Shown: piece by piece, positions 19,197-26,618 of the stretch
How positions within the stretch are numbered: the first letter of the stretch is position 1
Layout of the letters: each line of letters opens with the position of its first letter
DNA from: an uncultured bacterium
Lineage (GTDB): Bacteria; SAR324; NAC60-12
Direction: 5' to 3'
DNA: 44,568 nucleotides
Assembly: GCA_964010765.1 (NCBI GenBank)
Contig: CAXGMD010000017.1
Coordinates: 1-44,568 of the forward strand
Made by a program: the position numbers and the translations under genes
The notes under the pieces: model-generated
Databases searched by the model: none
What the model was told of the DNA's origin: nothing
What the model saw: only the letters and a program-made list of their open reading frames with translations

Positions 19197-19309
19197 GTCA
19201 ATTGTGATAGCTCCGGGAGAGATGTAGTAACCCTAAGGAGTGGTCAAATTATGTTTACTTTTACGAAAGGGATAATTTGAAAACTCTGAACCAACCAATG
19301 TGGATAAAC

Positions 19310-20725
19310 ATGTCTAGATCAATACTGAGCCTGTTTCTGCTCCTGCTGCTAGTTCCCGCTAGCTGGTCCCAGGAAGTCACTGGAGAAGGTGTAGGCTCCA
19401 CGAAAGAACAGGCAAAGAAAGAAGCCCTGGCCGACCTCTCTCAGAACATCTCGGTTGAGGTAAAATCTGTTCAAACCCAACTTTCTGAACTGATTGGAGA
19501 TAATTTACGCGAGGATGCTAGTAGTATGATTCAGCTGGAATCACGCCTTCCTATTCTTGGAGCAGAGAGTTTTGTGGTGGAAGATGTGGATTACTACTCT
19601 GCCTTGGCCCGTCTCTCAGCACAGGAGGTCAAACCGCTTTACCGCAATCAGCTTCAGCAAATGGAGAGAGAAATCCAGCAGGCCACCCAGCAACTGGAGA
19701 AGGCCGAGAGTAATGCAGAGCGGGAAACACTCCTTCAGGAAATTCTGGAAAAACTAGGGGATTTTAAGCGCCACCAAACCGTCTTGTTGGTCCTTGGGGA
19801 TAACGAGGTGCCCAAACTGCAAATCACAGAAACCGAGATCAAAAGTCAGCTTCGACAGGTTCAGAATGAACCAGATTCGCTGGAACAAGCTGCCAGAATC
19901 CTGACTAGGGATATGCAGGATCGAAGAGGGATCTATGTCTATCCATTTCGCACAGGAAGCTCACAAGAGATCACTCCTTTTGCTGCCGCCTTGAGAGGCC
20001 GCTTGCAGCAGCAGCTCAGCACGGTTCGCCAACCAGATCAGGCAACCCTCTGGCTCTACGGCACCTACTTGATTACAGATCAGGGATTGGAGCTCTCCGC
20101 CCACCTAACCCAGGCGAACAACCACCAAATCGAGCAATCCAGGTCACTGTTTTTGCCAAAGATGGCCTATCAGGGGTTGGAAGCCAAGCCGTCACAGATC
20201 AGTTTTGAAGAGCAGCTTCGCAATAATCCGGATCTTTTGCGCAAAAGAGATTTTCGAGTGTCTGTGCGCAGTAACAAGGGTTCTCAAGATCTGATGTTCC
20301 AGGAAGGAGATAGCCTGGAAATCTACGTTAAGCTCAACAAGCCAGGTTACTTCTACATTGTTGGACACACCTTTGCCGGAGAGGAGCCGTTTTCGTATTT
20401 GCTGGACTTGCAGGAAGAGGCAGATCCACCAAGGCGTTTCGTTCAATTTGTCAATGCAGATGACGTCAATCGATGGATCAGCCTGGGAGAGTTTGAAATT
20501 TATCCTCCGCTGGGTTTGGAGCATCTTCAGGTGATCGCTTCAAAAGAAGACTTGGTTCAGCGCTTGCCCGAATATTATTTTGATGCAGGATCAGAATTTT
20601 ATCTGGTTGGCAAAGATCCCACAGATGGTCTGACCAAAACCCGAGCAGCAAAGCGTCCAAAAAAGAAAAGCCCTGAAAATTACAGCGCAGAAGCCTTGCT
20701 CACTTATACTTCTGTACCACAGTAA
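19310..20725 (+). CDS. Secreted protein with N-terminal LPP20-like domain, coiled coil and C-terminal DUF4384-like domain
   Basis: Signal peptide, G-x-G...AKKEALADLSQNISVEV, C-terminal FQEGDSLEIYV...PPLGLEHLQVIAS. ATG 19310 preferred over TTG 19277. Confidence 0.7.
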   Translation: MSRSILSLFLLLLLVPASWSQEVTGEGVGSTKEQAKKEALADLSQNISVEVKSVQTQLSELIGDNLREDASSMIQLESRLPILGAESFVVEDVDYYSALARLSAQEVKPLYRNQLQQMEREIQQATQQLEKAESNAERETLLQEILEKLGDFKRHQTVLLVLGDNEVPKLQITETEIKSQLRQVQNEPDSLEQAARILTRDMQDRRGIYVYPFRTGSSQEITPFAAALRGRLQQQLSTVRQPDQATLWLYGTYLITDQGLELSAHLTQANNHQIEQSRSLFLPKMAYQGLEAKPSQISFEEQLRNNPDLLRKRDFRVSVRSNKGSQDLMFQEGDSLEIYVKLNKPGYFYIVGHTFAGEEPFSYLLDLQEEADPPRRFVQFVNADDVNRWISLGEFEIYPPLGLEHLQVIASKEDLVQRLPEYYFDAGSEFYLVGKDPTDGLTKTRAAKRPKKKSPENYSAEALLTYTSVPQ

Positions 20726-20748
20726 GTCTCAGAGAGAATTTCCTGATT

Positions 20749-20922
20749 TTATTCCAGAGGCGTTGCACAGAATCCACCGGAGGCCTGGGCTCCTGAGCCA
20801 AAAGCCAGTGGAGGAGGCGCTTGGAAGGGGTCAATCGGAGCACTGAAGAGCAAGTCGAGAAACAGCAACCCAAATAGTCCGAGCAATAGCACACCAATAG
20901 CGTGGGAACGTTGGAGAGTCAT
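20749..20922 (-). CDS. Unannotated 57-aa single-TM peptide with Gly/Pro-rich tail and one Cys near the C-terminus
   Basis: Hand translation MTLQRSHAIGVLLLGLFGLLFLDLLFSAPIDPFQAPPPLAFGSGAQASGGFCATPLE*. ATGA overlap with the yeeE stop and a GAGGAG SD 5 nt upstream. Confidence 0.8.
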   Translation of the reverse strand: MTLQRSHAIGVLLLGLFGLLFLDLLFSAPIDPFQAPPPLAFGSGAQASGGFCATPLE

Positions 20923-22070
20923 CTCTTCTCCTCAAGCAAGTGGTTGCGTAGTCGGACACCAAGCAGGGATCCGGCAAAGGCAGCGATGAACCAGACCCAG
21001 CCATGCAGGCTACCGGTCGAGATGCCACTGAAAAATGCGCCAACGTTGCAGCCATAGGCAAGGCGTGACGCATACCCCATCAGCAGAGCGGCTAGAGCAC
21101 CAACGATCCAAAGCCGAGTGGGAAGAGAAACCTGAGCAGCTAACGGTCCCTTCCAACGAGCAGCAATTCCAGCCCCTAACAATAAGCCGAAGTCTGTCAC
21201 TGATGTGATGTCTAGCAGCAAGCTTTGAGTCAAACGCTCAGCATTGCCGGCACCATTCCAGAAAGCAAAGCCCGCTAGTTCCATCCCCGACCAGTGTGCC
21301 AGCTTGGCACCCCATAAGCCTAGCCCATAAACCACTCCCCAGGGCTGTCCAGCCACCAACAGGTTGAGCACCGCCAATCCTGCCAGGCACAAAGCAGCAA
21401 TCCAGAGTCGACGCGGCAGGGTGCGCTCTGTCACGGGCATCCACTGTCGGAACCACCAGCCCAGCCCGGTCAGGATGGCCAGGGTCAGCAGGATGGCACC
21501 GGAGGTTCCCAGCCAATCGCTCAATGCGATGGGAGGCAACTGGCCCAGGGCATGCCACTCCGGCAGGTGCAGGGTTCCAAGGAAACTCCCGGCAATGAAG
21601 AAGGGCAGGGCCCAGAGACCCATCAGGTTGCCGCTGCCAGCGTTGACAAGGGTCCCGGAACCACAGCCCAGCACGACCTGCATTGCAGCCCCGAAGACAA
21701 AGGCCCCGAAGATCATCGCGACCCCCACTGGAGCTGTGGCTCCTATCAATTCACCCGCCGCTATTTCCAGTAGAAAGAGACTGGGCAGGGCCGTCAGCCC
21801 GATGGCCAGCAGTTGAGCCTGCAAGCCGTGGGTGTTGCGCTGTAGGATCGCTTGCCGCCAGGGACCTGCAAAGCCAAAACGCAGACCCTCCAGGGTGATG
21901 CCGAAGCCCAGCCCGATGGCCAGCAGTAGGCCTTGCCGGAGTCCAGCATAGATCGCCAGTACTAGGACCAGTAGCGTAGTTCCTATTCCAAGTAGGATAC
22001 GGAGTCGTCGTTGCCTCACATCATTGTTAGGGTCAGCAGCAGTTGTGGTGGTGGAACTCATCAGATTCAT
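20919..22070 (-). CDS. YeeE/YedE (TsuA-like) sulfur-compound transporter
   Basis: Multi-TM protein with two Cys motifs (VLGCGSG; AYGCNVGAFFSG). ATG 22070 lies 4 nt after the rhodanese stop. Confidence 0.88.
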   Translation of the reverse strand: MNLMSSTTTTAADPNNDVRQRRLRILLGIGTTLLVLVLAIYAGLRQGLLLAIGLGFGITLEGLRFGFAGPWRQAILQRNTHGLQAQLLAIGLTALPSLFLLEIAAGELIGATAPVGVAMIFGAFVFGAAMQVVLGCGSGTLVNAGSGNLMGLWALPFFIAGSFLGTLHLPEWHALGQLPPIALSDWLGTSGAILLTLAILTGLGWWFRQWMPVTERTLPRRLWIAALCLAGLAVLNLLVAGQPWGVVYGLGLWGAKLAHWSGMELAGFAFWNGAGNAERLTQSLLLDITSVTDFGLLLGAGIAARWKGPLAAQVSLPTRLWIVGALAALLMGYASRLAYGCNVGAFFSGISTGSLHGWVWFIAAFAGSLLGVRLRNHLLEEKR

Positions 22071-22074
22071 TGAC

Positions 22075-23052
22075 TCAGAAGGTATTGGCAAACCACTGCT
22101 TGGTGTTCAGCCAGGCCCACTTGAGGCGTCCTGGCACGTTGTCCATTGGCAGGCCAGCAGCAGACCACTCGACCATTGACTCCGGATAGAGCTTGACACC
22201 TGGCTGGCCAACCACTTCGCTCAGCACGAACCAGTTGGTGGCAGCCCAGTGTCCTGTGTTGCAGAAAGAGACAGTGACTTCTGCTTGGGTCAGGTCATTT
22301 TGCTGGGCCAGGGTCTGCAGTTGTTCTGGGGCTTCCAACAGAGGTCCTCCGGAACGAAACCACTGCTTGTTGTCGAAGTCCTCGGCTCCTGCGATTGTAC
22401 CGGGCTTAGCAGCAGCACCGTGCCATTTCTCACCAGCAAAGAAATCTGCGGGACGGGCATCGAGCAGCTTAGTATTTGTTTGCTTGAGTTGCTGTTCCAC
22501 GTCACTTGTGGAGGCCAGCCAGTCGGCTTGGATCGTGGCTGGATAGCTGCTGGGAGTCACCGTGGCGGTATCCTTAGAGATGGGCAGTCCTGCTTGTTTC
22601 CAGGCCAAGAAACCACCGTCAACAACAGCCAACTGTTGTAGTCCTGCGGTCTTGAGGGTCCAGTAGACTCGAGCCGCTGCACCGAAGTCACTGTAGGAAT
22701 CTCCTTTGTGCAGGACCACGGTCGGGGTTTCTGCATTCAAACCAAGTCCCTGGACGAGTGCGGTCAATTGGGCTTGTGGAAGGAACTTCCCTGGATTTTC
22801 AGCCGGTCCACGCCAGTTACCGTAAGGTGAAGAGAGTGCACCAGGGATATGACCGGCATTGTAGGAGCTATCTGGATCAAGCGCATTTGGTGGACGGATG
22901 TCAATGATGGTGACAGCGTCGGAGTGAGCTTGAAGTATTTGATTTAACTCATTGGCTGAGAGCAACGGCTTCCAGCCGGAGACCGAATTAGCAAAAGCGA
23001 AGCTACTAGCTAAAACCAGCAGTAAAGTAGAGAAAAGAGAGCGTATGTTCAT
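22075..23052 (-). CDS. Secreted tandem-domain rhodanese/sulfurtransferase, copy B
   Basis: Signal peptide (AFA), GHIPGA, AARVYW, LLDARP, active-site loop CNTGHWA and LYPESMVEWS. Confidence 0.9.
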   Translation of the reverse strand: MNIRSLFSTLLLVLASSFAFANSVSGWKPLLSANELNQILQAHSDAVTIIDIRPPNALDPDSSYNAGHIPGALSSPYGNWRGPAENPGKFLPQAQLTALVQGLGLNAETPTVVLHKGDSYSDFGAAARVYWTLKTAGLQQLAVVDGGFLAWKQAGLPISKDTATVTPSSYPATIQADWLASTSDVEQQLKQTNTKLLDARPADFFAGEKWHGAAAKPGTIAGAEDFDNKQWFRSGGPLLEAPEQLQTLAQQNDLTQAEVTVSFCNTGHWAATNWFVLSEVVGQPGVKLYPESMVEWSAAGLPMDNVPGRLKWAWLNTKQWFANTF

Positions 23053-23147
23053 GTTAGTTCTCAGTGAAAAAATCAAAAATAGACCAATTGATTATAGAAA
23101 AGTTATGTATGATTTGAAGGTAGGTAGCCATTAGCCTTCAATACTCC

Positions 23148-23741
23148 TTAAGAAGCCTGCTGAGACTGAATTTTCCTGACGCATTGATAGAGATTTTCTA
23201 ACTTGGAGTCATGAATTTGAGCCTTGCGAAGATACTGAATCGTTTGCTTCAGGTACTCAACACATGGACCCCGTTTTCCTTTGGCTTCCAGAATTCGTTT
23301 TCCTTTGGCTTCCACCTGCATTGTGGGGCAGACGTATTTGGGATGATCCAGTCTGACGACGAAGGCAATCGCTTCCAAGTTCCCTATCTCTGATTCAACA
23401 CGAACCCATTGTGGTTCATAGGCCTCTGTGATCATCTCCCTTTCCCAAATTTGGACCAGTTGGGTGTCCTTCAACTCCGGAGGAATCCGCAATGCCCGAC
23501 CAATACAGGACCCACCTGGTTCAAGTCCGAGGACTAATCCTGGAAATTCCTTGATTCCTCGATGCTCCGTACTCCAAAGACAAAAACTCCGATGGAATCC
23601 TTGAATTGTAGCCAGAATTGATTGATCAAAGGAAATTTCTGGATTCCACATCAAAGATCCGTAGGCAAAAATCCAGATTTCCTGGTCAGGAGGTCGCTGA
23701 TTCAGGATACTTTGGAGAGAGAAATTCACTGGAGTCACCAA
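23148..23741 (-). CDS. chaC: ChaC family glutathione-specific gamma-glutamylcyclotransferase
   Basis: WIFAYGSLMWNP, HRG..PGLVLGL and WEREM motifs. Start uncertain. Confidence 0.88.
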   Translation of the reverse strand: MVTPVNFSLQSILNQRPPDQEIWIFAYGSLMWNPEISFDQSILATIQGFHRSFCLWSTEHRGIKEFPGLVLGLEPGGSCIGRALRIPPELKDTQLVQIWEREMITEAYEPQWVRVESEIGNLEAIAFVVRLDHPKYVCPTMQVEAKGKRILEAKGKRGPCVEYLKQTIQYLRKAQIHDSKLENLYQCVRKIQSQQAS

Positions 23742-23891
23742 AAAAATTTATGAGTAAGATAGGTTTTTCAGCATTGTTGATCAGGTGCCTTTTGAGCAAA
23801 ATTTCTACCTTTGAAGGATACCTTAACTCCTGCTAAGTTGTCACTTTCGTTGGCTGAAAAAAAACTTTGCAGGAGTCTCCTTTTCGAGTGT

Positions 23892-24869
23892 TCAGTTGAA
23901 CTTAGATACGAGCCATTGCTTGGTAGACAACCAGGCCCACTCTAGGCGGTTGGGGACATTGTCCATTGGCAGATTGGCGGTGGACCATTCAACTAATGAT
24001 TCAGGATATAGTTTAACATTCTGCTTACCGGCGATTTCACTGAGCACAAACCAGTTGGTAGCAGCCCAGTGTCCTGTATTGCAGAAGGAAACAGTGATTT
24101 CAGCCTGGCCGAGCTTATTCTCCTGCACCAGATTCTGTAGTCGTTCCGGGGATTCGAGCAAGGGACCACCGGAGTGAAACCAGCGCTCATTATCGAAAGC
24201 CACGGCTCCAGCGATGGTTCCAGGTTTACTGGCAGCTGGATGCCAACTCAGGCCTTCGAAAAAGGAGTCGGGTCGGGCATCCAGTACCTGGAATCCAGGC
24301 TTGTTGAGGTATGCTTCGACCTCAGCTGTCTGTGCCAGCCAGTGAGGTTGGATTTGGGCAGGAAAGTCACTTGGCAGTGGAGTTTCCAACTCCGTCGAGA
24401 TCGGCAGACCCGACTGTTTCCAGGCCTGGAAGCCACCATTGAGGATTGCCAGGTTGGTCAATCCAGCGGTCTTGAGAGACCAGTAGACACGAGCTGCTGC
24501 GCCAAAGTCACTGTAGGAATCCCCACGGTGTACGACGACGACAGGGGTATCAGCCTCCGCCCCAAGTGCCTGGACGAGCCAGGTCAGCTTGTCCTGGGTG
24601 ATGAACTTGCCAGGATTGTCGGGTTGCCCACGCCAAGTCGCATAGGGGGAAGAGATCGCACCAGGGATGTGCCCCGCATTGTAGGAGGCGTCCGGTTCCT
24701 TGGCATCTAGGGCCCGGATGTCAACGACAGTTGCGGCAAAGGGATCTTCTTCGAGAAGTTCATGCAACTTGTCTACGGAGAGGAGAGGCTTCCAGTTGGA
24801 AAGTTCACTGGCGAAAGTTACGCTGGTAATCAAGGTGAGCAGTCCGATGAGCAAAAGACGCAGTTTCAT
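23892..24869 (-). CDS. Secreted tandem-domain rhodanese/sulfurtransferase, copy A
   Basis: Signal peptide (TFA), GHIPGA, CNTGHWA and LYPESLVEWS. AGGAG SD. Clear paralog of 22075..23052. Confidence 0.9.
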   Translation of the reverse strand: MKLRLLLIGLLTLITSVTFASELSNWKPLLSVDKLHELLEEDPFAATVVDIRALDAKEPDASYNAGHIPGAISSPYATWRGQPDNPGKFITQDKLTWLVQALGAEADTPVVVVHRGDSYSDFGAAARVYWSLKTAGLTNLAILNGGFQAWKQSGLPISTELETPLPSDFPAQIQPHWLAQTAEVEAYLNKPGFQVLDARPDSFFEGLSWHPAASKPGTIAGAVAFDNERWFHSGGPLLESPERLQNLVQENKLGQAEITVSFCNTGHWAATNWFVLSEIAGKQNVKLYPESLVEWSTANLPMDNVPNRLEWAWLSTKQWLVSKFN

Positions 24870-25098
24870 CAGTTTTCTCCTGGAGAGAAGTTGGCAAAGC
24901 AGGGCAAAACGATGGCCCAGAACATCAGCAAATGTGGAGAAGCTTTCCCCAGTGGGGAACGTTCTCGGTCAACGAAAACAACAGGCGAGGAGCGTTTTGG
25001 AGAGGAACCTGCGGGAGGCTCTAGAGCAAACGCACTCGCGAAAAATTCAGTGAATGATCAGAATCGGGAAACGAATCAGGAATGTGTGAACAGAGTGT

Positions 25099-25224
25099 TC
25101 AGCAACAGCAGGTAGGACAGCAACAGCAGGGAGTAACAGAGGCAACGACGGCAGCAGTCAGAGAAGTCTGGGAAAGGCTCGAACGCCCGGAGCGGAAAAA
25201 CGGTATATAGGGTAGAGAGTTCAT
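25099..25224 (-). promoter_or_regulatory. Polycysteine leader micro-ORF 2 (41 aa)
   Basis: Hand translation MNSLPYIPFFRSGRSSLSQTSLTAAVVASVTPCCCCPTCCC*. Seven of the last nine codons are TGY, followed by TGA. Confidence 0.75.
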
Positions 25225-25308
25225 CTTTCTATCTGATTCGAAAAAGTTTTTGGAGAAATTGGCGCTAGGGCCAAGGATGCGGCTAGGCCGCTGTGAAGAG
25301 GACCTGTA

Positions 25309-25386
25309 TCAACAACAGGTCAAACGACAACAACAGTAACAATCGGCTAGGGTACCGAATCGAATGTCTTTGCATGAGAAAGGCAT
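25309..25386 (-). promoter_or_regulatory. Polycysteine leader micro-ORF 1 (25 aa)
   Basis: Hand translation MPFSCKDIRFGTLADCYCCCRLTCC*. Seven Cys, six of them in the last ten codons, followed by TGA. Confidence 0.72.
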
Positions 25387-25412
25387 TACTGTTGTCCGAA
25401 AAGAAGGAATTT

Positions 25413-25436
25413 AAAAAATTCGATATCGAAGTTTTT
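25413..25436. promoter_or_regulatory. Near-perfect 24-bp palindrome, candidate operator
   Basis: AAAAA-A-TTCGATATCGAA-G-TTTTT in the divergent promoter region, 26 nt upstream of leader ORF 1. Confidence 0.4.
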
Positions 25437-25625
25437 CGTAGGCCGAGCACAAAGGCAAGCATTTTTTGCAGGTGCGAGAATACTTAGGGTAACGTGTCAT
25501 CGGTTGCCGGCTTTTTTCACCAATCTTTCTCAGGTGTTGAGAATGGTTTGATCTTCTACTGACTATTATCGAAGATTAGAAGAAATCTGGTCTTTCATCT
25601 CAACCACACATGCTTTGGAGGAAAC

Positions 25626-26618
25626 ATGCCCTATGATGCCGCTGATAACCGTTACGAATCTGCTCACTATCGTCGCTGTGGGAAATCTGGACTACACTTG
25701 CCCGAGGTGTCCCTAGGGCTTTGGTACAATTTTGGTGGAGTCGATCCTCTGGAAAATATGCGAGAGATGCTCCGACGGTCTTTTGACCTCGGGATTACGC
25801 ACTTTGATCTTGCCAACAATTATGGTCCCCCTCCTGGTTCGGCTGAAACCAATTTCGGGCGGATCTTTGCCGAGGACTTCAAGCCCTATCGCGATGAATT
25901 GGTGATTTCCAGTAAAGCTGGCTACCACATGTGGCCTGGGCCCTACGGAGAATGGGGCTCTCGCAAGTACCTGGTGGCAAGCTGCGACCAGAGCCTCAAA
26001 CGGGTGGGACTCGACTATGTAGACATTTTCTACAGCCATCGGCCCGACCCGAATACCCCCTTGGAAGAGACGATGGGAGCGCTGGACTACATCGTTCGTA
26101 GCGGACGAGCGCTCTATGCTGGTATCTCAACCTATTCCCCAGAGCAGACACGCGAAGCTTCACGCCTCCTGAGAGAATTGGGAACTCCCTGTTTAATTCA
26201 TCAGCCACGCTACAACATGTTTGATCGTTGGATCGAAGATGGCCTGCTTGATGTACTCAAGGACGAAGGGATTGGCTGCATTGCGTTCTCACCTCTTTGC
26301 CAGGGAATTCTGACCAACAAGTACCTATCTGAAGACTGGAGTGGCACCCGTGCTGATAAACTGAAGAGCGCTTTCCACTGGGGTGATGAAGTGACTCAGA
26401 AGCGCATTGCGCGGGTACGTGAACTACAGAAGATGGCCGATGAGCGTGGACAGACAATGGCTCAACTCGCGATCGCTTGGGTACTGCGTCAGCCACAGAT
26501 GACCTCGGCGCTGATTGGTGCCAGCAAGGTCTCACAAATCGAAGATGCTGTGGGTGCACTCAGCAACACGCAGCTTAGCGAAGAAGAACTATCCAGAATC
26601 GAAACTATTCTCGGTTAG
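25626..26618 (+). CDS. mgrA: Aldo/keto reductase, L-glyceraldehyde-3-phosphate reductase (YghZ/MgrA) family
   Basis: SLGLWYNFG, FDLANNYGPPPGSAE, SKAGYHMWPGPYGEWGSRKY and HQPRY motifs. Confidence 0.9.
   Translation: MPYDAADNRYESAHYRRCGKSGLHLPEVSLGLWYNFGGVDPLENMREMLRRSFDLGITHFDLANNYGPPPGSAETNFGRIFAEDFKPYRDELVISSKAGYHMWPGPYGEWGSRKYLVASCDQSLKRVGLDYVDIFYSHRPDPNTPLEETMGALDYIVRSGRALYAGISTYSPEQTREASRLLRELGTPCLIHQPRYNMFDRWIEDGLLDVLKDEGIGCIAFSPLCQGILTNKYLSEDWSGTRADKLKSAFHWGDEVTQKRIARVRELQKMADERGQTMAQLAIAWVLRQPQMTSALIGASKVSQIEDAVGALSNTQLSEEELSRIETILG

Follow-up and report, generated by a model that had tools for sequence, protein, structure and literature searches.

The 44,568-nt stretch of DNA analysed here (the window) carries what is probably a cysteine-gated operon that scavenges reduced sulfur for biosynthesis, with a core importer made of a rhodanese, a YeeE/YedE-family channel and a 57-residue protein, micro57. 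Two very small leader genes rich in cysteine codons appear to control the operon, and the marine bacterium that hosts it seems, judging from its gene content, unable to reduce sulfate. The conserved core is the rhodanese-YeeE-micro57 triad, and the micro57 partner is its new part, from a previously unnamed family; Cys-leader attenuators were already known. For the substrate and direction of sulfur flow, we infer that a periplasmic rhodanese would load sulfane sulfur from thiosulfate or polysulfide on its active-site Cys, leaving sulfite outside, and that the sulfur would pass to the invariant Cys52 of micro57, whose C-terminal tail would sit in the periplasmic funnel of YeeE, then to the periplasm-side C348 and to C143 of the channel, and so to the cytoplasm, where it would be reduced and consumed by CysK-like enzymes. 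In this genus a second rhodanese and a ChaC paralogue would have joined the core, as would a sulfonate-type ABC transporter in one species, and the whole unit is preceded by two leader ORFs in tandem, each closing with 5-7 Cys codons.

Table 1. Features of the sulfur-scavenging locus, in positions of the window.
Feature	Position	Strand	Description	Basis
L1 leader ORF	25309..25386	-	25 codons/25 aa	ORF list
L2 leader ORF	25099..25224	-	41 codons/41 aa	ORF list
L1 helix (predicted)	25329..25396	-		MFE and centroid folds, RNAalifold
Spacer L2-Rhd1	24870..25098	-	229 nt, conserved	Alignments and folds
Hairpin (predicted) UUCUCU-CCA-GGAGAA	24875..24889	-	Over Rhd1 Shine-Dalgarno	Folds and alignment
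Rhd1 rhodanese	23892..24869	-		Pfam Rhodanese x2
ChaC-family gamma-glutamylcyclotransferase	23148..23741	-		Pfam ChaC
Rhd2 rhodanese	22075..23076	-	Likely start = ATG 23052	Pfam Rhodanese x2
YeeE/YedE-family channel	20919..22091	-		PF04143 (Sulf_transp)
micro57	20749..20922	-	57-aa ORF	ORF list and own HMM

All seven ORFs of Table 1 are at these positions and on the minus strand in the program-made ORF list, which together with the Pfam identities bears out the minus-strand cluster of sulfur- and cysteine-related genes claimed in the preliminary description; the scavenging locus is thereby confirmed as an observation, and its earlier interpretation is partly supported. The two intergenic gaps it gave are also correct, with 150 nt between Rhd1 and ChaC and 95 nt from ChaC to the Rhd2 ATG at 23052, while the end of Rhd2 overlaps the start of YeeE by 17 nt. 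RNA across these gaps was found in part: in 3 of 4 runs the two gaps are spanned by contigs from RNA libraries, the one source bearing on co-transcription, and a single contig extends from YeeE through L2. The libraries are unstranded and may contain DNA, and thus suggest co-transcription only weakly. The order L1-L2-Rhd1-ChaC-Rhd2-YeeE-micro57 is retained in three genomes of the same genus (G005, G008 and G007), and a short form of the locus lies on one G003 contig. The G004 locus carries an extra insertion between Rhd1 and ChaC, which encodes an NMT1-type (sulfonate-type) ABC transporter and an OsmC-like peroxiredoxin-family protein.

The neighbourhood survey showed the linkage well beyond this genus: a genome-wide scan gave 80 loci, mostly of Alpha-, Beta- and Gammaproteobacteria, of which 78 have YeeE after the rhodanese, and an HMM search placed micro57 directly 3' of YeeE in 83 of 90 loci. 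The micro57 family comprises 240 database clusters, every one named 'hypothetical', and micro57 matched no Pfam family. Its sequence reads as a single-pass protein with a basic N-terminus, an Asp at the end of the helix and a tail of the form ...PPPLAFGSG....GGFC..., with R5, D23, P36, G42 and C52 near-invariant; of 84 sequences, 83 have Cys52 and the other has a frameshifted tail. In 54 of 81 loci YeeE and micro57 share 4 nt, the start of micro57 lying across the stop of YeeE; in 2 of 81 the micro57 sequence continues in frame from the C-terminus of YeeE, and the database contains one further fused protein. Models of the micro57-YeeE complex gave ipSAE values of 0.80, 0.80 and 0.83 (best of 3 controls, 0.00), with partner pLDDT of at least 78 and at least 88% of contacts shared between runs. 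The ipSAE mark is reached by 116 of 157 solved complexes and 2 of 215 mismatched pairs, figures that are approximate here because our own alignments were used, and the score is the model's own confidence and no measurement; no solved complex resembling this pair was found. In the models, residues 35-57 of micro57 touch YeeE residues 342-343, 346-347 and 351-352, which adjoin C348. Cytoplasmic YeeD is naturally fused to the C-terminus of YeeE (PMC11073785), which puts that terminus in the cytoplasm, so that the added helix of micro57 should leave the tail with Cys52 facing the periplasm, in agreement with the basic N-terminus. The micro-peptide first noted as a part of the locus is thus a YeeE partner by overlap, fusions and complex model.

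The channel matches PF04143 (Sulf_transp) at 2e-41 over profile positions 3-309 of 310, is the only such gene found in its genome (G000) and aligns along its full length with S. thermophila YeeE (StYeeE, 6LEO). C143 and C348, equivalent to C91 and C293 of that protein, are invariant in 76 sequences, and the position of C22 is Gly in 76 of 76, which places the channel in a two-cysteine subtype by sequence. In the crystal structure, C293 binds thiosulfate at the periplasmic side, and the two cysteines retained here are the indispensable ones in StYeeE (PMC7449682). One could thus propose that intact thiosulfate is imported as by the E. coli and S. thermophila YeeE (TsuA), with the rhodaneses and micro57 as accessories for substrate capture or gating, and with Cys-leader control and assimilatory purpose unchanged; the full-length similarity to StYeeE with both indispensable cysteines and the two CysK/CysM-like enzymes, which could take thiosulfate directly, agree with this. 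We nevertheless regard it as a minority possibility, since the cytoplasm-side Cys (C22) is replaced by Gly throughout, the NCBIfam TsuA model scores only 38.8 bits against a cut-off of 400, and no TusA/YeeD-family gene was found in G000 although YeeD is described as essential for TsuA-type uptake (PMC11073785). Moreover, without sulfite reductase half of each thiosulfate would become useless sulfite in the cytoplasm, and the linked, putatively exported rhodanese (78 of 80 loci) is hard to square with plain anion uptake. The missing TusA/YeeD gene also counts against the proposed relay, whose sulfur would need an acceptor in the cytoplasm.

Rhd1 and Rhd2, 63% identical to each other, each contain two Pfam Rhodanese stretches (5e-24, 3e-21). 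The active-site loop of Rhd1 is C-N-T-G-H-W-A, and this C263 loop is invariant in 7 of 7 homologues; its closest solved relatives are 3-mercaptopyruvate and thiosulfate sulfurtransferases, and it falls below the cut-off of every NCBIfam equivalog model. Both rhodaneses are probably exported, as judged by eye from N-termini with a basic start, a hydrophobic core and the endings ...TFA/S and ...AFA/N, features common to 7 of 7 aligned homologues. Instead of serving cysteine synthesis, the triad could provide the cell with sulfane sulfur (persulfides) that protects it from oxidative or cyanide stress or takes part in redox signalling, roles of the kind known from PspE and YedE1E2 in E. coli hosts. 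PspE, a periplasmic rhodanese, converts thiosulfate to sulfane sulfur in the cell and raises peroxide tolerance (PMC10215317), the two-cysteine YedE1E2 imports zero-valent sulfur and lowers reactive oxygen species (PMC10812762), and the OsmC-like gene of the G004 insertion would fit such a role. This reading is unlikely, however, given that Cys-codon leaders would tie expression to charged tRNA-Cys and not to oxidants, that the missing sulfite reductase makes a biosynthetic need for reduced sulfur likely, and that ChaC and the sulfonate-type ABC transporter of one species suit sulfur scavenging.

The genome inventory bears on that need. None of 9 genomes of the genus, one of them 99% complete, yielded a sulfite reductase (NIR_SIR), and in G000 neither ATP sulfurylase nor a clear CysD/CysH was found, the only PAPS_reduct match scoring 22.9 bits; whether sulfate assimilation genes are lacking was one of the checks proposed in the preliminary description. 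G000 has two CysK-like genes and one CysE-like gene. SoxB and SoxY of G000 lie on other contigs (C231 and C189), so a separate energy-yielding thiosulfate system exists, and together with the missing NIR_SIR this fits the assimilatory rather than Sox-type role proposed earlier. A dissimilatory or sensing function, in which a SoxT-like importer feeds cytoplasmic oxidation or a sulfane-sulfur-responsive repressor, might be expected from the presence of SoxB and SoxY in the genus and from the YeeE-like SoxT, which imports sulfur for oxidation and signalling (PMC11582611), but it is very improbable: these sox genes are not on the contig of the locus, a scan of 69 upstream neighbours of the triad gave no match to a Sox family and an ArsR-type HTH domain in just one (L090), SoxT is described with three conserved cysteines (PMC11582611) against two in the triad YeeE subfamily, and Cys leaders would make no sense for an energy pathway.

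The preliminary description also gave glutathione as a cysteine source, and here the identity of ChaC holds (Pfam 1e-38, profile positions 1-175 of 176, no signal peptide; alignment to human ChaC2 at 1.6e-12 with the YGSL(M/I)W motif), whereas GshB (PF02955) and an E. coli-type GshA were not found in G000 (92% complete), where a GCS2-family ligase alone is present. ChaC would free Cys-Gly from glutathione, a substrate that the cell perhaps does not make given these missing genes, and we consider the glutathione arm of the scavenging model weak. A ChaC paralogue is present elsewhere in G000 (contig C10), ChaC is absent from the triad in another genus (g2) and in 80 other loci, and the G+C content around ChaC is 0.43 (positions 23001-24000) against 0.55 on either side.

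Cys-rich leaders ahead of the operon had been claimed as well, and they hold up in the 12 aligned same-genus copies. L1 ends in C-Y-C-C-C-R-L-T-C-C and a stop, with 7 Cys, 6 of them within the last 10 residues, and L2 in C-C-C-C-P-T-C-C-C and a stop, with 7 Cys within the last 9. The start, stop and Cys run of L1 are retained in 12 of 12 copies, and L2 is conserved with 5-7 Cys. Within the Cys runs TGT and TGC interchange synonymously, and the leader N-termini vary while the Cys tails and stop contexts are fixed. Indels inside the leader ORFs (6 nt in L1; 3 and 9 nt in L2) are in frame in 3 of 3 cases, against 0 of 5 outside them (4/5, 1, 1, 2 and 1 nt), and both leaders appear to be under coding constraint. 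Of the 21 intergenic Cys-tailed small ORFs that a scan of the whole G000 genome returned, all but L1 and L2 lack at least one of three traits, namely an ATG start, 6-7 Cys and a downstream gene; L2 is covered by RNA-library contigs. No sequence-family match was found for the leaders, in Pfam for either or in NCBIfam for L1. In genus g5 the same triad stands behind an unrelated leader with six Cys codons at its end, in a region with an 11/12 promoter match and a terminator-like hairpin of 13 pairs. The triad itself does not need a leader, since genus g2 has the triad and no Cys leader, and one is likewise absent at 79 of 80 triad loci of other lineages.

That L1 and L2 are no translational sensors, being Cys-rich metal- or sulfur-binding peptides or TGY repeats that act only as RNA, or that the locus imports selenium, is about as improbable as a dissimilatory role. 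No Shine-Dalgarno of good quality at normal spacing was read for either leader, although Rhd1 has one, the L1 Cys codons are predicted to pair with bases just ahead of the L1 AUG, G000 contains selD, and the top NCBIfam scores of YeeE and Rhd2 are to the selenium-linked YedE/FdhT and ExtH. Those scores are far under their cut-offs (80.9 vs 350 and 67 vs 200), however, and the in-frame indels, variable N-termini and fixed Cys tails and stop contexts form the signature of a regulatory leader. The unrelated six-Cys peptide ahead of the triad in genus g5 also speaks against these readings, and genes for peptide modification or export are absent from the neighbourhood.

As regulatory leaders, L1 and L2 would act when charged tRNA-Cys is scarce: ribosomes would stall in the Cys runs beside the stop codons and relieve a downstream block, while with ample cysteine the leaders would be read through and the operon kept low. 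We infer this regulation, its RNA mechanism and induction by Cys starvation included, and candidates for the block are Rho-dependent termination in a C-rich spacer, a long hairpin with a U tract, and a hairpin burying the Rhd1 ribosome-binding site. The spacer just past the L2 stop is C-rich and G-poor (C/G ratio 2.0-2.2 in 60-nt windows), and further on a U-rich tract (24971-24984) lies just 3' of a long hairpin (24985-25039); the spacer fold is no better than shuffles (z -1.31, not significant). A canonical intrinsic terminator or antiterminator between the leaders and Rhd1 was not found in this genus, terminator-like sites in the region number 4 against 5.2 +/- 2.1 expected, with none within the spacer, and Rfam gave no match for the spacer even at E<=1. 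Both stem halves of the predicted hairpin over the Rhd1 Shine-Dalgarno are invariant in 12 of 12 copies and, for lack of variation, give no covariation evidence either way. In the predicted L1 helix, the bases just 5' of the AUG (GGACAACAGUAA) pair with the Cys codons (UUACUGUUGUUGUC); its MFE and centroid folds are the same (z -2.35), and 4 of 200 shuffles fold equally well. RNAalifold on 12 sequences retained it at 10 bp, with a single compensatory change, from A-U to G-C in G004, and with few broken cells. Over the whole region compensatory changes occur in just 4 of 145 predicted pairs, and the long-range consensus structure differed between the 7- and 12-sequence alignments.

The SoxY arm of the Sox system is a Gly-rich C-terminus ending in a Cys that carries periplasmic sulfur intermediates. 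The micro57 tail resembles this carrier arm by analogy; unlike SoxY, micro57 is membrane-anchored and one third the size, its covalent sulfur loading is putative, and it has no SoxY (PF13501) match, as no Pfam family matched it. With the YeeE-YeeD (TsuA-TsuB) thiosulfate uptake system (PMC7449682, PMC11073785) the locus shares a YeeE-family channel with essential pore cysteines, a small partner gene with an essential Cys after it, and C-terminal fusions of partner to YeeE, but micro57 is predicted to cross the membrane once and to hold its Cys tail in the periplasm whereas YeeD is described as a cytoplasmic TusA-fold protein (PMC11073785), and here the channel is without the cytoplasm-side Cys and a putatively exported rhodanese is an obligate third component. 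The two-cysteine pore chemistry is that of the PmpAB-type YedE1E2, an importer of sulfane sulfur made of two half-proteins (PMC10812762), in contrast to the full-length fused channel with a Cys-bearing microprotein seen here. PspE is likewise a periplasmic rhodanese that turns thiosulfate into sulfane sulfur reaching the cell interior (PMC10215317), and the rhodanese described here differs in being two-domain and genetically linked to a channel.

As for the leaders, the uORFC-8-2 motif upstream of cysS in Rhodobacterales is also a ribosome-mediated attenuator reading Cys codons in a Gram-negative lineage, described with two Cys codons, a clear intrinsic terminator and a tRNA synthetase gene (Brewer et al. 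2021, PMC8632094), whereas here there are 5-7 Cys per leader, no clear terminator and sulfur uptake genes. The closest parallel in layout is found in Actinobacteria, with the polycysteine leader ORFs of the mycobacterial 'Cys ribulon' (Canestrari et al. 2020, bioRxiv 10.1101/834739) and the Cys leaders of Mycobacterium, Propionibacterium and Bifidobacterium (Seliverstov et al. 2005, PMC1262725). As described there, these too have a run of Cys codons beside the stop of a short upstream ORF before sulfur and cysteine genes, including rhodanese operons, and no conserved terminator hairpin, with Rho-dependent or RBS-sequestration mechanisms proposed. The present locus differs in lineage, in showing no evidence of leaderless starts, in its two unrelated leaders in tandem with a conserved 229-nt spacer, and in a cargo that serves uptake, not biosynthesis.

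The ORF listing of the window gives seven co-directional reading frames on the minus strand, spanning 25386 to 20749: two cysteine-rich leader ORFs (L1 and L2), two predicted exported rhodaneses (Rhd1 and Rhd2), a ChaC homologue, a YeeE-family channel and a small ORF named micro57. The preliminary description had read these frames as an assimilatory sulfur-scavenging locus, and this reading holds in outline, with a system that is real, coherent and conserved; the 150-nt and 95-nt gaps it had claimed agree with the ORF coordinates. The operon is a bounded unit, since its 3' neighbour is convergent and its 5' neighbour, an aldo/keto reductase, is divergent. The convergent gene (19277-20725, plus strand) adjoins the operon across the genus and codes for a 482-aa protein with a signal-like N-terminus, which scores 26.4 bits against DUF4384, just under the gathering cut-off of 27, and matches FlgO weakly. 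L1, L2 and micro57 had no Pfam match, and the most interesting element is micro57, previously listed only as a micro-peptide.

Reading frames of the leader-rhodanese-YeeE operon
Feature	Coordinates	Strand	Description
L1	25386-25309	minus	25 codons; Cys = 6 of final 10
L2	25224-25099	minus	41 codons; Cys = 7 of final 9
Rhd1	24869-23892	minus	tandem Rhodanese domains (Pfam)
ChaC	23741-23148	minus	Pfam ChaC 1.2e-38
Rhd2	23076 (or ATG 23052) to 22075	minus	tandem Rhodanese domains (Pfam)
YeeE-family protein	22091-20919	minus	Pfam Sulf_transp 1.8e-41
micro57	20922-20749	minus	57 codons; ATG overlaps YeeE stop

A gene-neighbourhood survey, proposed in the preliminary description, showed that rhodanese, YeeE and micro57 recur together as a triad. 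A scan across genomes with the rhodanese alignment recovered 80 loci, three of which (L031-L033) are the window's own relatives, titled 'Deltaproteobacteria bacterium' or 'uncultured proteobacterium', while the remainder come mostly from Burkholderiaceae, Rhodobacterales/Paracoccaceae and various Gammaproteobacteria, with rhodanese identities of 40-51%. The rhodanese is followed by YeeE in 78 of the 80 loci, the exceptions being one contig end and one locus truly without YeeE, and a micro57 HMM matched directly after YeeE in 83/90 loci, with four of the seven misses at contig ends. In 69 proteobacterial loci the upstream neighbours of the triad are mutually unrelated and include no sox genes, which means that the triad acts as a cassette complete in itself. 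ChaC, the second rhodanese and the Cys leaders lie outside this core: the genus g2 has the bare triad, and among the 80 scanned loci Cys leaders occur at the same-genus locus only. Within the family of the window, the YeeE gene is present in 12 of 45 genomes and 4 of 12 genera; a YeeE-like gene of genome G023, which stands without rhodanese, micro57 or leader, was excluded as a triad member. Among the 69 proteobacterial loci with a scanned upstream neighbour, seven have an aldo/keto reductase in that place, as does the window, where it is divergent from the leaders (25626-26618, plus strand); six of the seven carry the titles Burkholderiaceae or Burkholderiales, the other beta proteobacterium, and the recurrence may be coincidence or may reflect a functional link.

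Two same-genus genomes depart from the arrangement of the window. In G004 (contig C78; L024:1842-5004), Rhd1 and ChaC are separated by an inserted block of the same orientation, which codes for an NMT1-type binding protein, a permease and an ATPase of the ABC type, and an OsmC-like protein, and which resembles a sulfonate/taurine-type uptake system. In G003, one contig carries a short form, L2-Rhd1-YeeE-micro57, without ChaC and Rhd2 (L030; C343:1-3809), and the same MAG also holds a contig with the start of a long-form operon (L033); the two forms could result from a strain mixture or from recombination between the two rhodanese genes. The G004 insertion and the G003 short form indicate that the leader-controlled unit gains and loses sulfur-related cargo.

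The third gene of the triad has a common plan in 84 sequences, consisting of a basic N-terminus (position 5 is R in 69 and K in 4), one hydrophobic helix that ends in Asp in 82/84, and a Cys tail of the form S-x-P-x-N/D-P-F/Y-x-A/E-P-P-x-x-A-L/F-G-S-G-x4-G-G/A-H/F-C. Pro36, Gly42 and Cys52 are conserved in 83, 82 and 83 of the 84, respectively, and the sole Cys-less sequence has a frameshifted tail. In 54 of 81 loci the micro57 start and the YeeE stop share 4 nt, and in 76 of the 81 the start lies within a range from a 31-nt overlap to 23 nt past the stop. Apparent fusions to YeeE from stop-to-stop frames at high-G+C loci were for the most part frame artefacts; a frame check left 2/81 loci, both from gammaproteobacterial MAGs, in which the YeeE C-terminus continues in frame into micro57, and a third fusion, a 446-aa protein with PF04143, is found in the protein database. 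The two MAG fusions (L088:3584-4858 and L107:3587-4840) each have a second rhodanese about 2 kb upstream. Searches at E<=1e-5 placed micro57 in a family of 240 clusters, every named one a 'hypothetical protein' and none with a Pfam domain. NCBIfam returned nothing and the ESM Atlas only unnamed clusters; no Pfam family matched at E<=0.01, and there was no profile match to SoxY (PF13501) nor any to TusA in Pfam or NCBIfam. No description of micro57 or of the triad was found in the literature searched, and other papers or supplementary files might hold one.

The fusions bear on the orientation of this protein. Natural YeeE-YeeD fusions have been reported to carry the cytoplasmic YeeD on the YeeE C-terminus (PMC11073785), and the helix of a fused micro57 would therefore run from inside to outside, leaving the Cys tail in the periplasm, which agrees with its basic N-terminus. 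A model of the YeeE-micro57 complex, built from our own alignments of 76 rows for each protein, gave ipSAE values of 0.80, 0.80 and 0.83, where the highest-scoring of three controls reached 0.00, with a partner pLDDT of at least 78 and at least 88% of contacts shared between runs; these values express the model's own confidence in a putative pairing and do not show binding. The mark used was reached by 116/157 solved complexes and 2/215 mismatched pairs, a calibration that is only rough here because the alignments were our own, and the result is unlikely to reproduce a known structure, since no solved complex resembles this pair. In the predicted interface, residues 35-57 of the micro57 tail touch YeeE 342-343, 346-347 and 351-352, beside C348.

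The YeeE protein itself belongs to the YeeE/YedE family (PF04143; E 1.8e-41; 143 bits, cut-off 27; positions 3-309 of the 310 in the profile) and aligns with S. thermophila YeeE over its whole length. C143 and C348, equivalents of C91 and C293 in that protein, are invariant in 76 subfamily sequences, and the position of C22 is an invariant Gly (76/76) within the motif R-F-G-F, leaving two of the three cysteines of TsuA. The score against the TsuA model (NF052577) was 38.8 bits against a cut-off of 400, and no TusA-fold partner of the YeeD/TsuB type accompanies the channel: micro57 follows YeeE instead, and PF01206 had no match in the 92% complete genome of the window, G000. The missing third Cys, the missing TusA partner and the low score together set this importer apart from TsuA/YeeD. 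The reported crystal structure (PMC7449682) shows thiosulfate bound by C293 towards the periplasm and places C22 on the side of the cytoplasm, and the same report describes a C22A variant of S. thermophila YeeE that still complements. The half-size YedE1E2/PmpAB proteins, as reported, keep just the two other Cys and import zero-valent sulfur, not thiosulfate (PMC10812762, PMC11582611). The importer of the operon probably works more like these sulfane-sulfur importers with two Cys, to which it adds an exported rhodanese and a new partner with a periplasmic Cys.

Rhd1 and Rhd2 have two PF00581 stretches each and are tandem-domain rhodaneses, and their N-termini look signal-peptide-like by eye, from which export is predicted. 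The catalytic loop of the C-terminal domain, C-N-T-G-H-W-A with C263, is invariant in 7/7 homologues and differs from the loops CRKGVTA and CG[ST]GVT. Both proteins reached 72-74 bits against a 3-mercaptopyruvate sulfurtransferase model with a cut-off of 250 (NF008557) and stayed under every NCBIfam equivalog cut-off. A periplasmic rhodanese of E. coli, PspE, has been reported to turn thiosulfate into cellular sulfane sulfur (PMC10215317). In the mechanism we propose, the exported rhodanese would load the periplasmic Cys of micro57 as a persulfide, this Cys would hand the sulfur to the outer pore Cys of the two-cysteine YeeE, and sulfur would pass through the inner membrane bound covalently to one Cys after another instead of as a free anion. 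As a tentative proposal, with the odds somewhat against it in our judgement, micro57 would be the membrane-tethered sulfur-carrier arm of a widespread importer that works by this covalent relay and forms the main sulfur route into biomass in a sulfate-blind marine lineage, metered by ribosomes that stall on tandem poly-Cys leaders. If micro57 is such a carrier arm, the three-part importer would have escaped notice because annotation misses a third gene of this size.

The proposed metering depends on L1 and L2. A scan of the whole 3.86-Mb G000 assembly for intergenic ORFs with Cys-rich tails gave 21 candidates, of which only L1 and L2 start with ATG, contain 6-7 Cys and are followed by a gene. 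Cys-rich small ORFs on contigs C113, C127 and C232 were discarded for want of a downstream gene. A weaker ORF on C9 (locus L111, 10925-12008; TTG start, 5 Cys in its final 13 residues), preceding a GGACT/AIG2 gamma-glutamyl cyclotransferase-like gene, was also set aside, that gene being broken by several stop codons in three relatives (G005, G007 and G004). The small-ORF scan thus gave no evidence for a wider Cys regulon in G000. Both leaders are present in G005, G008, G007, G004 and contig C28 of G003 (the contig of a second G003 copy ends within L1), and a search with a 21-base pattern found both in six more metagenome contigs. In an alignment of 12 sequences their start and stop codons are fixed while the N-terminal parts drift, and the tails retain 5-7 Cys with exchanges of TGT and TGC and occasional one-base losses of Cys to Tyr, Phe, Arg or His. 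Indels within the leader ORFs of these copies measure 6, 9 and 3 nt, all three multiples of three, against 4/5, 1, 1, 2 and 1 nt at the five sites outside, none of them a multiple of three, which argues that the L1 and L2 frames are translated. A Leu-rich alternative frame across L2 was rejected for lack of a start codon. In this respect L1 and L2 resemble leader-peptide attenuators: each is short and conserved, and each repeats codons for the amino acid to which the genes behind it are linked.

A comparable arrangement was found in genus g5, where a 28-codon ORF of genome G012, unrelated to L1 and L2, ends in six consecutive Cys codons before rhodanese-YeeE-micro57, with an 11-of-12 promoter match on its 5' side and a 13-pair terminator-like hairpin on its 3' side (one found against 0.3 expected). 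Rfam had no family in the whole window at gathering thresholds nor in the leader region at E<=1, and hence no known riboswitch or leader motif is present there. No canonical terminator was found at the leader region of the genus of the window, and scans of 20600-25700 gave terminator and promoter counts at chance level, with two promoter-like sites in intergenic gaps set aside. The leader region is C-rich (C 30%, G 20%), with a C/G ratio of 2.0-2.4 directly after each leader stop. The best supported structural element is a predicted helix of 10-12 bp in which bases 5' of the L1 AUG pair with the L1 Cys codons (one compensatory change, z -2.35); compensatory changes are few in the predicted consensus structure as a whole (4/145 pairs). 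A 55-nt hairpin followed by a U-rich tract shows one-sided base changes only, and an invariant hairpin in the aligned copies is predicted to cover the Rhd1 Shine-Dalgarno sequence. A long-range helix around L2 seen with 7 sequences was replaced by another with 12, and both were held unreliable; a five-base pairing of L2 post-stop bases with the long hairpin, noted by eye, was dropped, as it is not kept in G008-type sequences. Ribosome stalling on the Cys codons of L1 and L2 is the likely sensor, and for the output, Rho-dependent termination or sequestration of the Shine-Dalgarno sequence is provisionally ranked above a classical terminator.

Six RNA-labelled runs, salt-marsh metatranscriptomes by description, contain 53-73% of the sampled locus words; nearly all of these words occur in DNA runs with a marine or aquatic metagenome label. 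The preliminary description had proposed RNA evidence across the two gaps, and RNA contigs bridge both in three of the four runs compared with the window, one contig of 4009 bases stretching from within YeeE to a point 46 bases 5' of the L2 AUG. As these contigs are unstranded, may include DNA carry-over and are no proof of one transcript by spanning several genes, they support co-transcription weakly. Contig depths were not used for ranking genes, and contig ends at 25266-25297 were rejected as a transcript end because they coincide with a polymorphic site.

The preliminary description had also asked whether sulfate assimilation genes are lacking, and our inventory points that way: in G000 (92% complete) no NIR_SIR sulfite reductase, no ATP-sulfurylase and no TusA were found, its only PAPS_reduct match reaches 22.9 bits, and NIR_SIR was found in none of nine genus genomes, one of them 99% complete. 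Strong PAPS_reduct (CysD/CysH-like) matches of about 190 bits occur in three of the nine (G002, G003 and G008) and are absent from G000 and the 99%-complete G005. Two CysK-like genes and one of CysE type are present in G000, and the YeeE of the operon is its only Sulf_transp gene. SoxB and SoxY each exceed their cut-offs in 6/9 genus genomes, and in G000 they lie on small separate contigs (SoxB at C231:646-2328, 868 bits; SoxY at C189:1618-1926). The lineage thus appears to oxidise thiosulfate for energy and to be unable to reduce sulfate or sulfite to sulfide, which would make a separate, cysteine-metered import of reduced sulfur sensible, and splitting thiosulfate outside the cell would avoid cytoplasmic sulfite that cannot be used. 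Elsewhere in G000, a selD gene (C141:3695-4612, 378 bits) has one in-frame TGA, which makes it probable that the organism uses selenium and that its selenophosphate synthetase contains selenocysteine.

Mobilisation of cysteine from glutathione had been ascribed to ChaC. Its product covers positions 1-175 of the 176 of PF04752 and has the substrate-binding motif, with YGSLMW aligned to YGSLIW of human ChaC2 (6KY0), so that by its sequence it is a putative glutathione-specific gamma-glutamylcyclotransferase. In G000, GshB and an E. coli-type GshA were not found, and only a GCS2-family ligase is present. The gene is a paralogue of a second ChaC (C10:40819-41325; L112:1266-1889), which follows a 352-aa ORF directly and lacks a Cys-rich leader. 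The segment holding ChaC (23001-24000) has a G+C of 0.43 against 0.55 in the flanking rhodanese genes, which suggests a recent insertion of the paralogue.

Transport by the YeeE family is partly understood, and the cytoplasmic YeeD is the one solved partner. A second, unrelated, periplasm-facing Cys partner would define a new sulfur-import architecture and make it possible to test directly if sulfur passes the membrane as a covalent persulfide. Of micro57 there are at least 240 protein clusters; it is either coupled to the channel or fused with it, and an exported rhodanese is always linked to it. Its likeness to SoxY is one of functional analogy only. The operon offers a concrete answer to how marine bacteria without sulfite reductase get their sulfur, and indicates that a Sox-bearing organism can keep a separate cysteine-metered assimilatory branch. 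Cys-codon leaders are already known, among them the cysS uORF reported in Rhodobacterales (PMC8632094) and the actinobacterial Cys leaders, in which Cys runs likewise abut the stop codons. For the latter, the reports give no terminator and propose Rho-dependent termination or RBS sequestration (PMC1262725; bioRxiv 10.1101/834739). L1, L2 and the G012 leader fall outside the sequence family of the mycobacterial polycysteine leaderless sORFs, matching no NCBIfam family even at E<=10. What is new here is the tandem form, in another lineage and before an uptake operon, and this extension of cysteine-codon leader control supports the view that ribosome-based cysteine sensing has arisen repeatedly.
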